Source: a virus. From it: DNA of 12,211 bases. The notes below the pieces were generated by a model. The model worked only from the letters and a program-made list of their open reading frames with translations, searched no databases and had not been told where the DNA came from. Positions within the stretch are counted from its first letter, which is position 1. Each line of letters starts with the position of its first letter. The stretch lies in UHGV virus genome UHGV-1627304; one strand, given 5' to 3'. Made by a program: the position numbers and the translations under genes. Positions 2,767 through 10,483 of the stretch are shown here, piece after piece.

Positions 2767-3584
2767 GCAATCCCCCTGTCTGCAAACTTCCCTTCCCGAA
2801 CTCCCGTTAACGAGTCTTCTCTCAGCAGGTAATCAAAATCAGCCGTCCAGCCCGTGTCGTTGTCTCCGAAGTAAAACGGCTTGGCCTGATGCACAAACGC
2901 CCTGACATACGCTCTGAAACCGTCCACGTTTGGCGTTTTCAGTTGCGGGATGATTTTCTTCAGGCGGCGTTTGCGTTTCTCGTTGACCGCAACAGCGTGT
3001 GGCAGTCTGTCACCGACTTCGGTGTTGTAAGCGTTCAGGAAGGATTCGTAGTCGATTCGTTCTGCCTTGCGACGTTCAGGTTTAACCTGCCCATCGCCGC
3101 CCCCGTTAGGGGGTAAGGGGGTATTTGTATTTATTGTCTTTTGTATATTGTCTTTTGTGTTTAGCTGACTTGGCTTATACCCATTAGCCGACTTGGCTAA
3201 TGTTTTATTAGCTGTTTTAGCTAATGTTAAGCTGTCCTGGCTAATCCACTGAGAAACCACCTTGTTCACTCCGATTTTCACGCCATCAGCAATGAGGAAT
3301 TTACGCTCAATAAGCTGGCGCTTGGCAGCGCAAACATGAGTGTGATGAATACCTGTCATGGCTGCTATCTGCGTGTTTGTGAGTCGATCCATCGGCTTAT
3401 TGAATCCGTATGTCTTGCGCATGATAGCGAGCATCACCTTCAACTGCCGGACGGTTAAATCAGCCATCAGCAGACTGTCGGTAATCTCGTTAGCAACGCG
3501 CATGAAACCATCTTCGGTATCTGCCACGCGATGCTCCACGACCTCCAGTTGAGGCCTGTAATCAGCTAACTTAACGACGCCCAT
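2763..3584 (-). CDS. Replication initiation protein, lambda O / P22 gene 18 family (273 aa)
   Basis: N-terminal region ([38 protein letters not shown]) resembles the lambda O N-terminus (ADLTKRQFKVLLAILRKTYGWNKPMDRITDSQL, from memory). Iterons and an AT-rich tract lie inside the gene, as in lambda ori. Confidence 0.85.
3121..3245. repeat. Candidate replication origin: four ~19-bp iterons plus adjacent AT-rich tract, inside the O-like gene
   Basis: Iterons read directly: 3161-3179 ttagctgacttggcttata, 3184-3202 ttagccgacttggctaatg, 3208-3226 ttagctgttttagctaatg, 3227-3245 ttaagctgtcctggctaat. Each has a TAGC...GCTA dyad. AT-rich 3121-3160 contains a direct repeat attgtcttttgt x2. Confidence 0.7.
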
Positions 3585-3820: not shown

Positions 3821-4058
3821 TGGTGAGAATCGAAGCAACTTGTCGTGCCAATCGAGCCATGTCGTCGTCAACGACACCCCATTCAAGAACAGCAAGCAGC
3901 ATTGAGAACTTTGGAATCCAATCCCTCTTCCACCTGCTGATCTGCGACTTATCAACTCCCACAGCTTCCGCTGTCTTCTCAGTTCCAAGCATTGCGATTT
4001 TGTTAAGCAACGCACTCTCGATTCGTAGAGCCTCGTTGCGTTTGTTTGCACGAACCAT
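3765..4058 (-). CDS. cII: Transcriptional activator CII (97 aa)
   Basis: MVRANKRNEALRIESALLNKIAMLGTEKTAEAVGVDKSQISRWKRDWIPKFSMLLAVLEWGVVDDDMARLARQVA... is essentially lambda CII. Start at the internal Met with the classic TAAGGAAATACTTACATATG ribosome-binding region. Confidence 0.95.
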   Translation of the reverse strand: MVRANKRNEALRIESALLNKIAMLGTEKTAEAVGVDKSQISRWKRDWIPKFSMLLAVLEWGVVDDDMARLARQVASILTNKKRPAATERSEQIQMEF

Positions 4059-4075
4059 ATGTAAGTATTTCCTTA
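4035..4075 (+). promoter_or_regulatory. pRE-like promoter with CII-binding direct repeats TTGC-N6-TTGC
   Basis: ttgcgtttgtttgc at 4035-4048 on the + strand, within the cII 5' end, followed by aagtat as candidate -10. Matches lambda pRE architecture. Confidence 0.6.
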
Positions 4076-4137
4076 GATAACAATTGATTGAATGTATGCA
4101 AATAAATGCATACACCATAGGTGTGGTTTAATTTGAT

Positions 4138-4168
4138 GCCCTTTTTCAGGGCTGGGATGTGTAAGAGC
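4138..4168 (-). promoter_or_regulatory. nutR site (boxA CGCTCTTACA and boxB GCCCTGAAAAAGGGC on the minus strand); tR1-like region lies just downstream at about 4095-4128
   Basis: Plus strand shows gccctttttcagggc (4138-4152) and tgtaagagcg (4159-4168), the reverse complements of lambda nutR boxB/boxA. The cro-cII spacer matches the lambda tR1 region as recalled. Confidence 0.7.
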
Positions 4169-4176
4169 GGGGTTAT

Positions 4177-4386
<210 letters not shown>

Positions 4387-4399
4387 TTAGTACATGCAA

Positions 4400-4470
4400 C
4401 CATTATCACCGCTAGAGGTAAAATAGTCAACACGCACGGTGTTAGATATTTATCCCTCGCGGTGATAGAT
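4400..4470. promoter_or_regulatory. Right operator OR1-OR2-OR3 with divergent PR (minus strand, cro) and PRM (plus strand, cI)
   Basis: 17-bp sites read directly: OR1 4404-4420 tatcaccgctagaggta, OR2 4428-4444 caacacgcacggtgtta, OR3 4451-4467 tatccctcgcggtgata. PR -10 (gataat) and -35 (ttgact) on the minus strand at 4402-4407 and 4425-4430. cI ATG at 4478 directly follows the PRM region (leaderless arrangement as in lambda). Confidence 0.85.
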
Positions 4471-4474
4471 TTAA

Positions 4475-5191
<717 letters not shown>

Positions 5192-5209
5192 TTTTAAGGA
5201 AATATCTTC

Positions 5210-5650
5210 ATGAGAGAAGAAAAAATAATAACAATCTACACAACGGCGGTAAAACCCGGGCTGGCAATCACTCCTTTTATGACACCAGATCCTATAATAG
5301 TGTCGGAAGAATACCCTTGTTCCGGCTCATTTTACCTAACTGCAATAATGTACTTCGAGCACGAAAAAAAATACACTACCGAACTTGATGTCGTATTCAA
5401 TGGAGAATCGGTTTTACCTGATATCTCTAGCAATCAAGAGCAACTGCAAACATTTATGTTTTCTCCTGTCAATGAAAAATATGTTGTGGTTGGCACATAT
5501 CTTTTCGTTAAAAACATCAAACTTATAGAAACAGGAACATATGACATAATTTATCGCATCTTTGAAGACATTGATGGTAATCTTAGCGAAGTTATTGATG
5601 AAAAAAAATGCGCTCTTATTTCAACCACCCCGAACAGAGATAAGGAATGA
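5210..5650 (+). CDS. Hypothetical protein (146 aa, no predicted TM segment), first gene of a two-gene cassette at the rexA/rexB position
   Basis: ORF starts 19 nt after the cI stop with AAGGA SD; ATGA overlap with the next gene. Visibly AT-rich. No motif I recognise; not RexA-like in size or sequence. Confidence 0.75.
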   Translation: MREEKIITIYTTAVKPGLAITPFMTPDPIIVSEEYPCSGSFYLTAIMYFEHEKKYTTELDVVFNGESVLPDISSNQEQLQTFMFSPVNEKYVVVGTYLFVKNIKLIETGTYDIIYRIFEDIDGNLSEVIDEKKCALISTTPNRDKE

Positions 5651-6003
5651 AACGACATCTGTACGCTGTGCCTCTTGACAGGAGTAAAGTTGATAATTTT
5701 CCACATAACCACCATAATGATGAGACATATGGTGGTGGTAACGGTGGAGGTGGTGACATGTTACAGCGCATAAAAATTCTTGAAGATAAAGTCGCAACCA
5801 TGGCGACCGACATCGCTGTAATTAAGTCTAACTATGCAACATCTGCCAATGTAGAATCTGTTAAAACAGACATAGCTAATGCAAAAGCAGAACTTCACAG
5901 CGCAATGAGACTCCAAGCCATGGCTATTATTGGTTCAGTTCTTGCAGCCGTTGGAACTGGTGTTGGGTTAATAATAAAAATGATGCCATCACTACCTCAC
6001 TAA
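5647..6003 (+). CDS. Hypothetical small membrane protein (118 aa from ATG 5647, or 82 aa from ATG 5758): His/Gly-rich N-terminus, predicted coiled-coil, C-terminal hydrophobic helix
   Basis: Translation MKRHLYAVPLDRSKVDNFPHNHHNDETYGGGNGGGGDMLQRIKILEDKVATMATDIAVIKS...LQAMAIIGSVLAAVGTGVGLIIKMMPSLPH. Hydrophobic stretch AMAIIGSVLAAVGTGVGLII near the C-terminus. An internal in-frame ATG at 5758 has a better SD (GGAGG, 7-nt spacing). Followed directly by a terminator. Confidence 0.7.
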   Translation: MKRHLYAVPLDRSKVDNFPHNHHNDETYGGGNGGGGDMLQRIKILEDKVATMATDIAVIKSNYATSANVESVKTDIANAKAELHSAMRLQAMAIIGSVLAAVGTGVGLIIKMMPSLPH

Positions 6004-6015
6004 GAATCTACACAA

Positions 6016-6040
6016 CCCGGCCTCAGCGCCGGGTTTTCTT
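6016..6040 (+). terminator. Intrinsic terminator ending the cI operon (timm-like)
   Basis: cccggc-ctcagc-gccggg stem-loop (6016-6033) followed by TTTTCTTT. The flanking sequence matches the lambda region between rexB and PL as recalled. Confidence 0.75.
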
Positions 6041-6194
6041 TGCCTCACGATCCCCCAAAAAACGCATAACCAATTGTATTTATTTCAAAATTAATAGATA
6101 CAACTCACTAAACATCGCAATTCAGATCTCTCGATCACCTTCCCAATCCACACAACCCTGCAAAAAAATAAATCTATATAAAAAACATACAGAT

Positions 6195-6264
6195 AACCAT
6201 CTGCGGTGATAAATTATCTCTGGCGGTGTTGACATAAATACCACTGGCGGTGATACTAAGCACA
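6195..6264 (+). promoter_or_regulatory. Left operator OL3-OL2-OL1 with PL promoter
   Basis: OL3 6195-6211 aaccatctgcggtgata, OL2 6215-6231 tatctctggcggtgttg, OL1 6239-6255 taccactggcggtgata. PL -35 ttgaca 6229-6234 and -10 gatact 6252-6257. Classic lambda PL sequence. Confidence 0.85.
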
Positions 6265-6297
6265 TCAGCAGGACGCACTAACCACCATTGAAGGTGA

Positions 6298-6328
6298 GGC
6301 TCTTAAAAATTTAGCCCTGAAGAAGGGC
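6298..6328 (+). promoter_or_regulatory. nutL site (boxA-like GCTCTTAAAAA, boxB GCCCTGAAGAAGGGC)
   Basis: boxB hairpin gccctgaagaagggc at 6314-6328 with boxA-like sequence just upstream, in the PL leader ahead of N. Confidence 0.7.
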
Positions 6329-6438
6329 GGCATTCAAAGCAGAAAGCTTTGAGTAGCGCGAAATGCAGCTGCAAGACAGCAACCGTGGAGATAAGCATCA
6401 CGGCGCGTTACTCAAAGCTAACTGACAGGAGAATCCAG

Positions 6439-6771
6439 ATGGATGCACAAGCACGCCGCCGCGAACGTCGCGCAGAGAAACAGGCTCAATGGAAAGCAGC
6501 AAATCCCCTGTTGGTTGGGGTAAGCGCAAAACCAGTTAACCGCCCTATTCTCTCGCTGAATCGCAAACCGAAATCACGAGTAGAAAGCGCACTGAATCCG
6601 ATAGACCTTACGGTGCTGGCTGAATACCACGAACAGATTGAAAGCAACCTGCAACGTATTGAACGCAAGAATCAGCGCACATGGTACAGCAAGCCACGCA
6701 GTGAAATGGGTGTGACTTGTGTTGGTCGCCAGAAGCAACGCGGAAAATCAATTCCAGCTTATTACGATTGA
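6439..6771 (+). CDS. N: Antitermination protein N (110 aa)
   Basis: MDAQARRRERRAEKQAQWKAANPLLVGVSAKPVNRPILSLNRKPKSRVESALNPIDLTVLAEYHEQIESNLQRIERKNQRTWYSKP... matches lambda N (arginine-rich boxB-binding motif at the N-terminus); C-terminal ~20 aa diverge. Start at 6439 with GGAGAA SD, not the upstream ATG at 6349. Confidence 0.9.
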   Translation: MDAQARRRERRAEKQAQWKAANPLLVGVSAKPVNRPILSLNRKPKSRVESALNPIDLTVLAEYHEQIESNLQRIERKNQRTWYSKPRSEMGVTCVGRQKQRGKSIPAYYD

Positions 6772-6779
6772 GGTGAGCC

Positions 6780-6917
6780 ATGCTCAAGAAAGTCAAACGC
6801 CGACTTTACAAAGAAGGTAGATATTCATGCCAGTTGCCAAAATGCGACACAACAAAATGGAGTGTCGATGATTGGTGTAACTGGATAGATAGATACGGAA
6901 CTTGGTGGGATAAATAA
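6780..6917 (+). CDS. Hypothetical small Cys/Trp-rich protein (45 aa)
   Basis: Own translation: MLKKVKRRLYKEGRYSCQLPKCDTTKWSVDDWCNWIDRYGTWWDK. GAGGTGAG SD-like sequence upstream; begins 9 nt after the N stop. Weak call on size alone. Confidence 0.3.
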   Translation: MLKKVKRRLYKEGRYSCQLPKCDTTKWSVDDWCNWIDRYGTWWDK

Positions 6918-6974
6918 CAGGTAACTTAAGCGTATTTACTTTCGCAGCAAACCACTTATTTGAGAGGAATTAAT

Positions 6975-7598
6975 ATGTCATCAATCCGCTTAACTACGAG
7001 AATGAAAGAGAAAATCGCTCGTAACGCTTTAATTAAGTCTGGGGTTTTCACTGAACTTGAAGAAGTAACAAAGTTAAAGAACCAGCTTGCACTTGACGCC
7101 AGAGTTATTGCGTTTGGCGGTAAAAAGAAAACTGAGGAAGTGGATCAGTTATCATCCAGGTTAGTAGCTATAAGTGAAGAACTTGAAAAGATGGGATGTT
7201 CATTTTACTCATACGATGTTCGTTCTACTTCAATTTATCTGACTGTATCTGGCAGAAGGGTTGGATGGCATTCATATGGGAAAGACGGCAACGGCGAAGA
7301 TATATTGCTCCCTACTCCAACCAAAGATAAATGCATGTTTGATGCAGAACACGAAATAACAAAAAGGTTTGATGAAATCTGCGCATTGCAACAAAAACTT
7401 GAAGCCAAGAAAAAGGATATCGAATCAAATGTATGGGCTGCTTTGAACTCAGTCACAACAGTTAAGCGACTTATTGAAGTTTGGCCTGAAAGCAAAGAAT
7501 TGCTACCAAAAGAAGCAGACAAAGCAAGTACAGCACTTCCTGCTTTACGGGTAGAAGATTTGAATAAGATGATTGGACTTCCTTCCGAGTCCGCATAG
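6975..7598 (+). CDS. Hypothetical protein (207 aa), unknown function, at the position lambda uses for ral/sieB-type accessory genes
   Basis: Long ORF with GAGAGGA SD 6 nt before ATG at 6975 (track shows a TTG-initiated extension from 6960). AT-rich. Lys/Glu-rich helical-looking stretches. No motif recognised. Confidence 0.75.
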   Translation: MSSIRLTTRMKEKIARNALIKSGVFTELEEVTKLKNQLALDARVIAFGGKKKTEEVDQLSSRLVAISEELEKMGCSFYSYDVRSTSIYLTVSGRRVGWHSYGKDGNGEDILLPTPTKDKCMFDAEHEITKRFDEICALQQKLEAKKKDIESNVWAALNSVTTVKRLIEVWPESKELLPKEADKASTALPALRVEDLNKMIGLPSESA

Positions 7599-9056: not shown

Positions 9057-9524
9057 ATGTCTCACTTGGACGGAATTATTAAAAGATTCGAGTCCAGCTA
9101 CAAAGTTAATGAAACAACAGGTTGCTGGGAGTCTACCTATTCAAAAAACAAAGGAGGATACACAAAATTTGTAGCCTTTGGCGTAACAATGCTTTCTCAT
9201 CGTGTTGCTTTTGAGCTTTATCACTCCCCCATTCCATCTGGGAAGATGGTTTGCCACAAATGCGATAACCCATGCTGCGTTAATCCTGAACATCTCTTTT
9301 TAGGTAGCGCGCAAGAAAACATGGACGACAAGATAGCAAAAGGAAGGCATCGTGGAGCCAAGAAAGGTCATGCTCATCATGGTGCAAAATTAACAGAGTG
9401 GCAGGTTATAGAAATTAGGAAAAGACTCTCTGAAAAAGAGAGTCAGTACAAGATAGCAAAAGACATGGGTGTATCTCAATCAATTATAAGCAACATAAAA
9501 ACTGGCAAGAGGTGGAGCAAATGA
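9057..9524 (+). CDS. HNH homing endonuclease (155 aa)
   Basis: HNH signature ...[58 protein letters not shown]... ATG directly abuts the recombinase stop (TAAATG); its stop overlaps the ssb start (ATGA). Confidence 0.8.
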
Positions 9525-10003: not shown

Positions 10004-10483
10004 ATGAAAATCTGCTCAAGATGCCATCAACAGAAGGAAGAAAGGGACTTTCAAATCAGAAGAGCATCCAGAGATGGATTAACTGCCGCTTGCCGGGCTT
10101 GCCTGGCTGAATACGACAAAGAGCGCGCGGGATTGCCACATCGAGTATCAGCAAGGAGAGAATATCAATCATCGGAACGCGGCAGAGGACGGTGTAACGC
10201 AGCCAAAAAGCGGTTCATTCAGAGCAACCCATGGAAAAGAAAAGCCCACATCATCGTGGGTAATTTTTTGCGCGACGGTAAGCTAATCCGACCACCACAA
10301 TGTGAGTGCTGCGGATCAGAATGTAAACCACAGGCGCACCACTGCGACTACAGCAAACCAACCGATGTGATGTGGCTCTGCAAGTCATGCCATGTCGAGT
10401 GGCACAAACATAACAAACCTATCTACCCAGACGAGGAACCAGTAACTCTCCCCTTCCCTCGTCACGCTATTCACGCAATTTAA
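10004..10483 (+). CDS. Zinc-ribbon / HNH-like nuclease-domain protein (159 aa)
   Basis: N-terminal CxxC...CxxC (CSRCHQQ...CRAC) and C-terminal CECCGSE...AHHCDY...CKSCHVEWH, an HNH-type metal-binding motif. AGGAG SD 6 nt upstream. Confidence 0.7.
   Translation: MKICSRCHQQKEERDFQIRRASRDGLTAACRACLAEYDKERAGLPHRVSARREYQSSERGRGRCNAAKKRFIQSNPWKRKAHIIVGNFLRDGKLIRPPQCECCGSECKPQAHHCDYSKPTDVMWLCKSCHVEWHKHNKPIYPDEEPVTLPFPRHAIHAI

Follow-up and report, generated by a model that had tools for sequence, protein, structure and literature searches.

The window analysed here is the whole 12,211-nucleotide (nt) stretch UHGV-1627304, the early region of a mosaic lambdoid prophage in the orientation of lambda's leftward strand. 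Between the cI repressor gene and the immunity terminator Timm it carries a cassette of two small overlapping open reading frames (ORFs), ORF1 and ORF2, in the interval that holds rexA and rexB in lambda. Sequence comparison assigns the cassette to a so far uncharacterised family of repressor-linked gene pairs that has remote relatives in phages HK542 and HK244. Features of the cassette and its immediate surroundings are given below by window position.

4396-4477: control region between cro and cI with OR, PR and PRM; PR-like hexamers TTGACT-17-GATAAT at 4430-4402 on the minus strand; 98% identity to lambda
4478-5191, plus strand: cI repressor of lambda immunity type, 237 amino acids (aa); Pfam HTH_3 and Peptidase_S24; part of a segment (4018-5192) with 98.4% nucleotide identity to lambda
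5192-5209, plus strand: 18-nt spacer with an AAGGA Shine-Dalgarno (SD) sequence for ORF1; anti-SD duplex -6.1 kcal/mol
5210-5650, plus strand: ORF1, 146 aa, predicted immunoglobulin (Ig)-like beta-sandwich, candidate partner or sensor
5647-6003, plus strand: ORF2 long form, 118 aa, predicted tail-anchored coiled-coil membrane protein; start coupled to the ORF1 stop
5647-5730, plus strand: N-terminal tail (N-tail) of ORF2, residues 1-28, putative partner-specific segment, from motif conservation and identity that tracks ORF1
5731-5757, plus strand: glycine-rich linker GGGNGGGGD of ORF2, with SD-like GGAGG at 5746-5750
5758-6003, plus strand: candidate internal start ATG (Met38) and its predicted 81-aa short form, coiled coil plus transmembrane (TM) helix, the XhlA-like part
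5911-5982, plus strand: codons of the predicted C-terminal TM helix of ORF2, residues ~89-112, from KD19 hydropathy
6014-6045, plus strand: intrinsic terminator Timm, hairpin 6014-6035 followed by a T-run; 8-bp stem with 6 G-C pairs

Replacement of rexAB and predicted co-expression with cI

Alignment to lambda gave 98.4% identity over 4018-5192, then a gap, then 91% over 6014-6351 and 98% over 6413-6695. Homology ended one base past the cI stop (5192) and returned at the Timm hairpin (6014); positions 5193-6013 (821 bp) therefore occupy exactly the place of rexA-rexB, with ~0.8 kb of cassette where lambda has ~1.4 kb. An earlier, sequence-only reading of this DNA had proposed that two genes replace rexA/rexB between cI and the terminator. 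The alignment bore this out, and the ORF coordinates given there (5210-5650 and 5647-6003) and the ATGA overlap, at 5647-5650, were exact. The cassette had also been judged AT-rich by eye, and the computed GC content agreed: the cassette has 38.4% (ORF1 36.3%, ORF2 41.5%), compared with 45.8% in cI and 50.5% in N. Horizontal acquisition, suggested on that basis, is consistent with the mobility of the cassette, an identical copy of which lies behind at least three different repressors. The pairing of a soluble with a membrane protein was likewise found by hydropathy. As the same reading had stated, neither protein was related to RexA or RexB by profile: ORF1 scored 5.7 bits against lambda RexA in a four-sequence search, which is not meaningful, and the ORF2 profile scored below zero against RexB.

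Neither a terminator-like site nor a convincing promoter was found between cI and ORF1, so the cassette should share the PRM/PRE transcript. Expression with cI from PRM had been predicted, and the layout agrees with it: no terminator intervenes and Timm follows ORF2, an arrangement from which we infer co-transcription. In HK542 the corresponding region has annotations for PRM and OR1-3. Timm is common to lambda and 104 phage records and carries that annotation in HK542 and CL707. A promoter-like site at 5690-5718 (TTGATA-17-CATAAT, 10 of 12 positions matching), in the N-tail codons of ORF2 and 5' of the candidate internal start, was rejected because the number of such sites was not above chance.

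Most of the cassette is flanked by a 16-nt direct repeat, TAA(C/G)AATCTACACAAC, at 5229-5244 and 6001-6016, the copies being alike at 15 of 16 positions. One copy lies in ORF1 codons 7-12, and the other spans the stop codon of ORF2 and the beginning of Timm. The repeat was considered as an insertion mark and rejected: it occurs in all near-identical copies of the cassette and is missing from diverged relatives, and the left copy is inside the conserved N-terminus of ORF1.

ORF1 is modelled as an Ig-like protein

The ratio of nonsynonymous to synonymous substitution rates (dN/dS) against relatives was 0.09-0.15 for ORF1 and 0.11-0.31 for ORF2, indicating that both are real genes under purifying selection. 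Homologues fell into 27 protein clusters for ORF1 and 67 for ORF2. Minus-strand ORFs of 51-65 aa opposite the cassette were rejected as genes, being antisense to these two selected frames.

ORF1 has neither a hydrophobic segment (KD19 maximum 1.19) nor a signal peptide. Its structural model is an eight-stranded beta-sandwich of good confidence (predicted local distance difference test, pLDDT, 86; predicted template modelling score, pTM, 0.81). ORF1 is thus modelled as a cytoplasmic Ig-like beta-sandwich protein, and the fold would be of a binding type. A Foldseek search against viral models returned uncharacterised phage proteins of similar size alone, and a sequence search of the PDB returned nothing for ORF1. 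An exhaustive HMMER search of 1.84 billion representatives recovered 59 relatives, nearly all of 140-155 aa; a few weak matches fell on Ig-repeat giants. The ORF1-like family, with these 59 representatives, consists of single-domain proteins of ~136-158 aa, and its remote members were connected at hhalign probabilities of 94-95%. Neither ORF1 nor ORF2 matched Pfam, NCBIfam or PADLOC, and in PHROGs both matched families of unknown function only.

ORF2 is a predicted tail-anchored membrane protein

The sequence-only reading had described ORF2 as having a His/Gly-rich N-terminus, a coiled-coil-like middle and one C-terminal hydrophobic helix. The first of these was seen in the translation (FPHNHHNDETYGGGNGGGGD), in which a His-rich stretch is followed by GGGNGGGGD, and the last was found at residues ~89-112, with a KD19 maximum of 2.23 at residue 92. 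The coiled-coil middle fared less clearly: long helices were predicted there, but otherwise it drew just weak profile hits to coiled-coil chains. The AlphaFold2 model has residues 1-35 disordered, followed by helices at 36-64 and 66-115, and a PDB sequence search with ORF2 returned generic coiled coils only.

The TM helix is rich in small-xxx-small motifs. Only ~6-8 residues follow it, so ORF2 is predicted to be tail-anchored, with these residues facing the periplasm and all of ORF1 and nearly all of ORF2 in the cytoplasm.

The N-tail motif M.R.LY.VP.DG..(V/I)E was kept across the ORF1 clade, with a ratio of nonsynonymous to synonymous polymorphism (pN/pS) of 0.54 for the N-tail. A further motif, P-H-(N/T)-x-x-(Y/H), stands right before the glycine-rich linker (window 5698-5730) in most ORF2-like proteins paired with an ORF1-like protein; it is weaker or absent in those paired with a Zn-ribbon protein.

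A candidate internal start and a proposed short form of ORF2

The annotated ORF2 start at 5647 overlaps the ORF1 stop and has a weak SD sequence (-2.9 kcal/mol). At the linker end, the window has GGAGG at 5746-5750 followed by ATG at 5758, with a duplex energy of -10.6 kcal/mol. The residue at this position was Met (ATG) in 66 of 71 distinct ORF2-like genes and Val in the other five. All five Val codons were GTG, which accounts for 20% of the Val codons of neighbouring genes. GGAGG occurred 4-10 nt 5' of the internal start in 79% of the 71 genes, compared with a mean of 34% and a maximum of 52% after synonymous recoding (500 trials), and the mean anti-SD duplex energy was -9.9 kcal/mol compared with -8.5 ± 0.24 for the null; the 71 sequences are related to each other, and glycine codons favour SD-like strings.

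Lone chromosomal genes of 78 aa in some Enterobacteriaceae begin at the equivalent Met, with their own SD sequence and an in-frame stop upstream, and 81-aa gene calls are present in public data. These observations suggest a second, short ORF2 isoform of 81 aa, started internally at Met38. From the conserved GGAGG with ATG or GTG, the lone genes starting at the equivalent Met and the evidence that the N-tail is translated, we propose two forms: a long form coupled to ORF1 translation alongside an internally started short form. That ORF2 exists as the short form only was rejected, given the conservation of the N-tail motif at the protein level, the ATGA overlap with ORF1 and the co-variation of the tail with ORF1.

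One lone short-form gene of 78 aa (coiled coil plus TM helix) lies at 5001-5237 of locus L012, and L013-L015 have the same arrangement: a core-chromosome position between a DUF903 gene and TerC/mutH, without a partner gene or surrounding prophage.

Modular shuffling of ORF1, tail and anchor

We aligned 41 distinct ORF1/ORF2-type pairs, 40 of which entered the identity comparison; a copy truncated by IS2 was left out. In all 41 pairs the ORF2-like protein had the same layout: a variable N-tail and a glycine-rich linker, followed by a helical stalk and, at the very C-terminal end, a TM helix. The linker was nearly invariant (G-G-G-N-G-G-G-D-D-M-L) and present in all ORF2-like proteins, and the part that follows it (C-part; coiled coil plus TM helix) fell into at least five discrete classes.

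In pairwise identity, ORF1 and the N-tail were correlated (Mantel Spearman r=0.22, p=0.0005), and ORF1 and the C-part were not (r=-0.01, p=0.58). There were 26 pairs in which C-parts were at least 85% identical and ORF1 less than 40% identical, and 27 pairs showed the reverse. The locus L017, for example, has a C-part 95% identical to that of the window, an ORF1 25% identical and an unrelated tail. This pattern of shuffling places the recombination joint at the glycine-rich linker. It points to ORF1 and the tail as one evolutionary unit and to the membrane anchor as another. Most simply, this would mean that ORF1 binds the N-tail of ORF2.

Distribution and mobility

Cassette DNA was found in 4 of 5,426 complete E. 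coli genomes, and the exact ORF1 protein was indexed in 920 blocks of public assemblies. A peptide-pattern scan of genome contigs returned one locus, its patterns being too narrow. Carriers included clinical, animal and wastewater isolates of E. coli. The identical cassette lay behind repressors of at least three kinds: lambda cI (237 aa), a 234-aa and a 215-aa protein. At their left junction, hetero-immune copies retain ~30 nt from the 3' end of lambda cI, which indicates transfer by recombination within the boundary sequence. Such a remnant (QWPEETFG*) was seen at 2932-3000 of locus L112 and at ~2950-2982 of L118; it is intergenic in one and forms the fused C-terminus of a 215-aa repressor in the other, and has the appearance of a recombination linker.

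Diverged relatives were found across the Enterobacterales, in Salmonella, Enterobacter, Citrobacter, Serratia, Yersinia, Pantoea and Klebsiella. Their gene order was a repressor with a helix-turn-helix (HTH) and an S24 domain, an ORF1-like gene, an overlapping or adjacent ORF2-like gene and the early-left operon, in many immunity types. All ORF1-like genes examined that had enough upstream sequence stood directly 3' of an HTH+S24 repressor gene and were followed by an ORF2-like gene; the exception was locus L002, where IS2 lies between. In that locus (E. coli O125ac C 236-04A) IS2 is inserted, at 5681-6909, in the 5' part of ORF1, which it splits, and ORF2 is intact: a natural knockout of ORF1.

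Of the 80 viral contigs that carried an ORF2-like gene, 39 had an ORF1-like gene immediately upstream, preceded in 35 of the 39 by a repressor gene. A further five had apparently remote ORF1-like partners. In another 28 the partner was of a different kind, 113-126 aa long and bearing a CxxC...CxxC pattern, with a weak Pfam CpXC match; this partner sometimes followed a repressor and was more often a moron among tail and baseplate genes. The sister cassette so formed comprises a tail-anchored protein with the glycine-rich linker and an SNYAT motif and a 113-126 aa Zn-ribbon, CpXC-like partner (L089 3080-3755; L078 3083-3722; L066 3061-3716; L056 1912-2536). One example of its placement is 3' of the tape-measure gene, ahead of minor tail genes.

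Other features of the window

The remaining genes and sites are listed here. An Rfam search of the window returned no match.

Minus strand, in order: NinB, DnaB-like helicase, O-like replication protein, cII and cro
Plus strand, in order: cI, ORF1, ORF2, N, Nmad5 protein, Kil, Rad52-like recombinase, HNH endonuclease, SSB and anti-RecBCD protein
Right window end, minus strand: partial integrase ORF
6195-6257, plus strand: OL operators and PL promoter, TTGACA-17-GATACT at 6229-6257, operator-like repeats D2/D3; 91% identity to lambda
6439-6771, plus strand: N antiterminator; Pfam N36, 3.3e-25

Directly 3' of N in the PL operon is a gene for a nucleotide-modification-associated domain 5 (Nmad5) protein, at 6975-7598 (Pfam 3.7e-72). 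The region is AT-rich (~39% GC) and accessory-like, and 6944-7332 is shared with HK542. At 9057-9524 the Rad52-like recombinase gene and ssb are separated by a homing-endonuclease-like HNH gene (Pfam HNH_3, 1.1e-13). The interval from ssb to the anti-RecBCD gene contains, at 10004-10483, a Cys-rich ORF of 159 aa with several CxxC pairs and no Pfam match.

Proposed function and alternatives

RexAB, the oldest known abortive-infection system, has its home between cI and the immunity terminator. We tentatively favour the reading that the cassette is a membrane-acting exclusion or abortive-infection module, directed against phages, and would put this at slightly less than an even call. We favour it because the cassette shares its slot with RexAB, BstA and HicAB and because of its architecture; low GC content, mobility, the coupling of ORF1 to the N-tail and the internal-start signal were counted as further points.

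Under this proposal the cassette would be a prophage accessory (moron) operon, co-transcribed with cI from PRM/PRE in the lysogen and ending at Timm. ORF2 would be held in the inner membrane by its C-terminal helix, and its helical, probably oligomeric stalk and flexible glycine linker would present the N-tail to the cytoplasm. ORF1 would dock on this tail, which would make it a sensor or adaptor at the membrane on a holin-accessory-like (XhlA-like) anchor. The tail-less isoform from Met38 would probably co-assemble with the long form. A superinfecting phage might then supply a ligand for ORF1 or for the tail, upon which the anchor helices would rearrange and open a membrane lesion, giving abortive infection in the fashion of RexA/RexB; alternatively, the ORF1/ORF2 complex may block genome entry at the membrane. 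A bolder version, which we consider distinctly improbable, is that modular prophage immune switches form a large family, hitherto unrecognised, which the cassette represents. In them an interchangeable cytoplasmic sensor, Ig-like or Zn-ribbon, would clamp the partner-specific tail of a two-isoform XhlA-like protein, and phage sensing would turn a holin/antiholin-type equilibrium into a lethal membrane lesion; such switches would be built of lysis-module parts and be distinct from RexAB.

Several observations weigh against an anti-phage role. The cassette and its relatives matched no defence family in PADLOC, Pfam or NCBIfam, and any anti-phage activity is itself inferred. Megablast and tblastn searches of 50,697 phage records matched the Timm terminator only and neither protein, and no paper mentioning the cassette was found in the literature searched. 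The slot also carries cargo that is not defence-like, so position alone is weak evidence. Lone short-form genes stand in ordinary chromosomal contexts, which means that nothing intrinsic to the anchor module makes it a defence protein. Confidence in the ORF2 model is low (pLDDT 68). Finally, the SD-like GGAGG may in part be a by-product of Gly-Gly codons, although the recoding null argues otherwise.

The proteins P22 SieA, T4 Imm and HK97 gp15 stop incoming phages at DNA entry or at an early step at the membrane, and a tethered ORF1/ORF2 complex could likewise exclude superinfecting phages without killing the cell. This is an unlikely explanation. In its favour, ORF2 is, by layout, an inner-membrane protein expressed in the lysogen, the interchangeable anchors suggest generic tethering and the ORF1 fold is of a binding type. 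It is weakened by the topology, in which nearly all of the protein mass of the cassette would be cytoplasmic and ~6-8 residues periplasmic, and by the lack of similarity to any known exclusion protein in the family searches. Small single-TM proteins are often depolarising toxins, and the cassette might instead be a toxin-antitoxin (TA)-like or addiction pair in which ORF2, short or long, is a membrane toxin neutralised by ORF1, stabilising the prophage or its immunity region. The overlapping two-gene operon fits such a pair, as does hicAB in the same slot of mEp234 and HK106. No TA family was matched, however; one strain carries an IS2-split ORF1 with an intact ORF2, where IS2 would also be polar on ORF2; and lone short forms are tolerated in chromosomes that lack ORF1. 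We give this explanation only a small chance of being right.

RexAB has been reported to influence the lysogenic-lytic switch, and a holin-accessory-like protein with its regulator could modulate the prophage's own cycle, at the transition from lysogeny to lysis or in lysis timing. The XhlA-like architecture of ORF2 would suit this role, as XhlA works with a holin (PMC5589764), and the dual-start arrangement recalls holin/antiholin pairs. Yet the layout has the cassette expressed with the repressor operon rather than with a late or lysis operon, it never adjoined a holin or endolysin gene in the loci examined, and it is freely exchanged between phages that differ in lysis and immunity modules; we regard such a role as quite improbable. 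A host-directed lysogenic-conversion factor, acting on envelope, stress or virulence and unrelated to phages, has a very slight probability. The moron position, the low GC content and the clinical, animal and wastewater carriers are what such a factor might show, but the proteins are predicted to be cytoplasmic or tail-anchored without an exported domain, and sensor-like diversification of ORF1 and tail is unexpected for a housekeeping conversion function.

The favoured anti-phage reading would, if true, offer a simple two-protein model for the gating of a single-helix membrane effector by a cytoplasmic sensor. If the cassette is not a defence system, it would still be an abundant membrane complex, expressed by layout in the lysogen, of E. 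coli, Salmonella and Enterobacter prophages. The interval from cI to the terminator is a known hotspot of defence genes linked to repressors, and the cassette adds to it an unannotated and evidently successful family. Its modular grammar of partner and matching tail, glycine linker, interchangeable anchors and probable internal start is experimentally tractable.

Comparison with known systems

Replacement of rexAB by other cargo in imm-lambda phages is already documented in GenBank records EF120455-61 and by Degnan et al. 2007 as cited in PMC8585504. Owen et al. (PMC8585504), citing Degnan et al. 2007, present the interval from cI to N as a mosaic-diversity hotspot, with bstA among its contents, and describe it as holding abortive-infection (Abi) systems. 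Elsewhere, the imm-lambda slot carried RexAB, BstA (CL707), hicAB (mEp234 and HK106) or an NYN protein (ev099).

The cassette resembles lambda RexA/RexB in its identical slot, from the cI stop to Timm, in its predicted co-expression with the repressor and in pairing a soluble with a membrane protein; these common features make a sensor-plus-membrane-effector logic plausible. The proteins differ, with no sequence or profile similarity. RexA has 279 aa and is not an Ig-like sandwich, and RexB is a multi-pass protein of 144 aa, in contrast to ORF2 with its single helix at the C-terminus and its long stalk in the cytoplasm.

BstA also lies 3' of a repressor gene with a presumed shared promoter and fills the same slot in CL707. 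It is a single cytoplasmic DNA-binding protein of ~300 aa, unrelated in sequence to ORF1 and ORF2. The PADLOC BstA model matched neither ORF; the CL707 slot gene, included as positive control, matched at 1e-105. In CL707 (EF120459) this gene, at 1179-2084 of locus L029 between cI and Timm, is annotated as a 301-aa "hypothetical protein" and is a BstA homologue (PADLOC 1.3e-105). Toxin and antitoxin families in Pfam and NCBIfam were not matched by ORF1 or ORF2.

The PBSX membrane protein XhlA is needed alongside the holin XhlB and the endolysin (PMC5589764). Residues 38-118 of ORF2 match the layout of XhlA (PBSX/SPP1-type, Pfam PF10779), a helix or coiled coil followed by a C-terminal TM helix, and some ORF2 relatives are labelled "hemolysin XhlA" by their sources. 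ORF2 itself gave no hit to Pfam XhlA at E ≤1 and a PHROG 'hemolysin' match at E=0.16; among its relatives, 3 of 26 gave weak Pfam XhlA hits (E ≤0.05; best 2.3e-4). Unlike XhlA, ORF2 has an additional N-tail and glycine-rich linker, and it lies, as do its relatives, in the immunity region rather than in a lysis cassette with holin and endolysin; the variants with a Zn-ribbon partner lie among tail or baseplate genes. The conserved internal SD-like sequence with ATG or GTG suggests that ORF2, a small membrane-protein gene, may have two in-frame starts whose isoforms would have the TM part in common, which would recall the holin/antiholin dual start of lambda S107/S105. The ORF2 isoforms would differ by 37 residues, compared with 2 in S107/S105, and ORF2 belongs to the immunity operon where holin/antiholin dual-start genes belong to the late operon.

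By the tests run, the cassette is not a member of the RexAB, BstA, XhlA or TA families. A remote relative of the cassette is the gene pair c105 and c104 of the imm-lambda wild phages HK542 and HK244 (EF120457/8, annotated as hypothetical), which occupy the same slot as ORF1 and ORF2. c105 (144 aa) is a remote ORF1 homologue, with an hhalign probability of 94% over the full length at ~16% identity. c104 is similar to ORF2 in its disordered N-terminus, helical region and single TM helix; it differs in its size of 206 aa, in a C-terminal extension past the TM helix and in having neither the SNYAT motif nor the canonical glycine linker. HK544 c103 matched the ORF2 profile at 5e-6 in a local search. 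The likeness of c105 and c104 to ORF1 and ORF2 suggests that distant cousins of the cassette have been in GenBank as hypothetical proteins since 2007.

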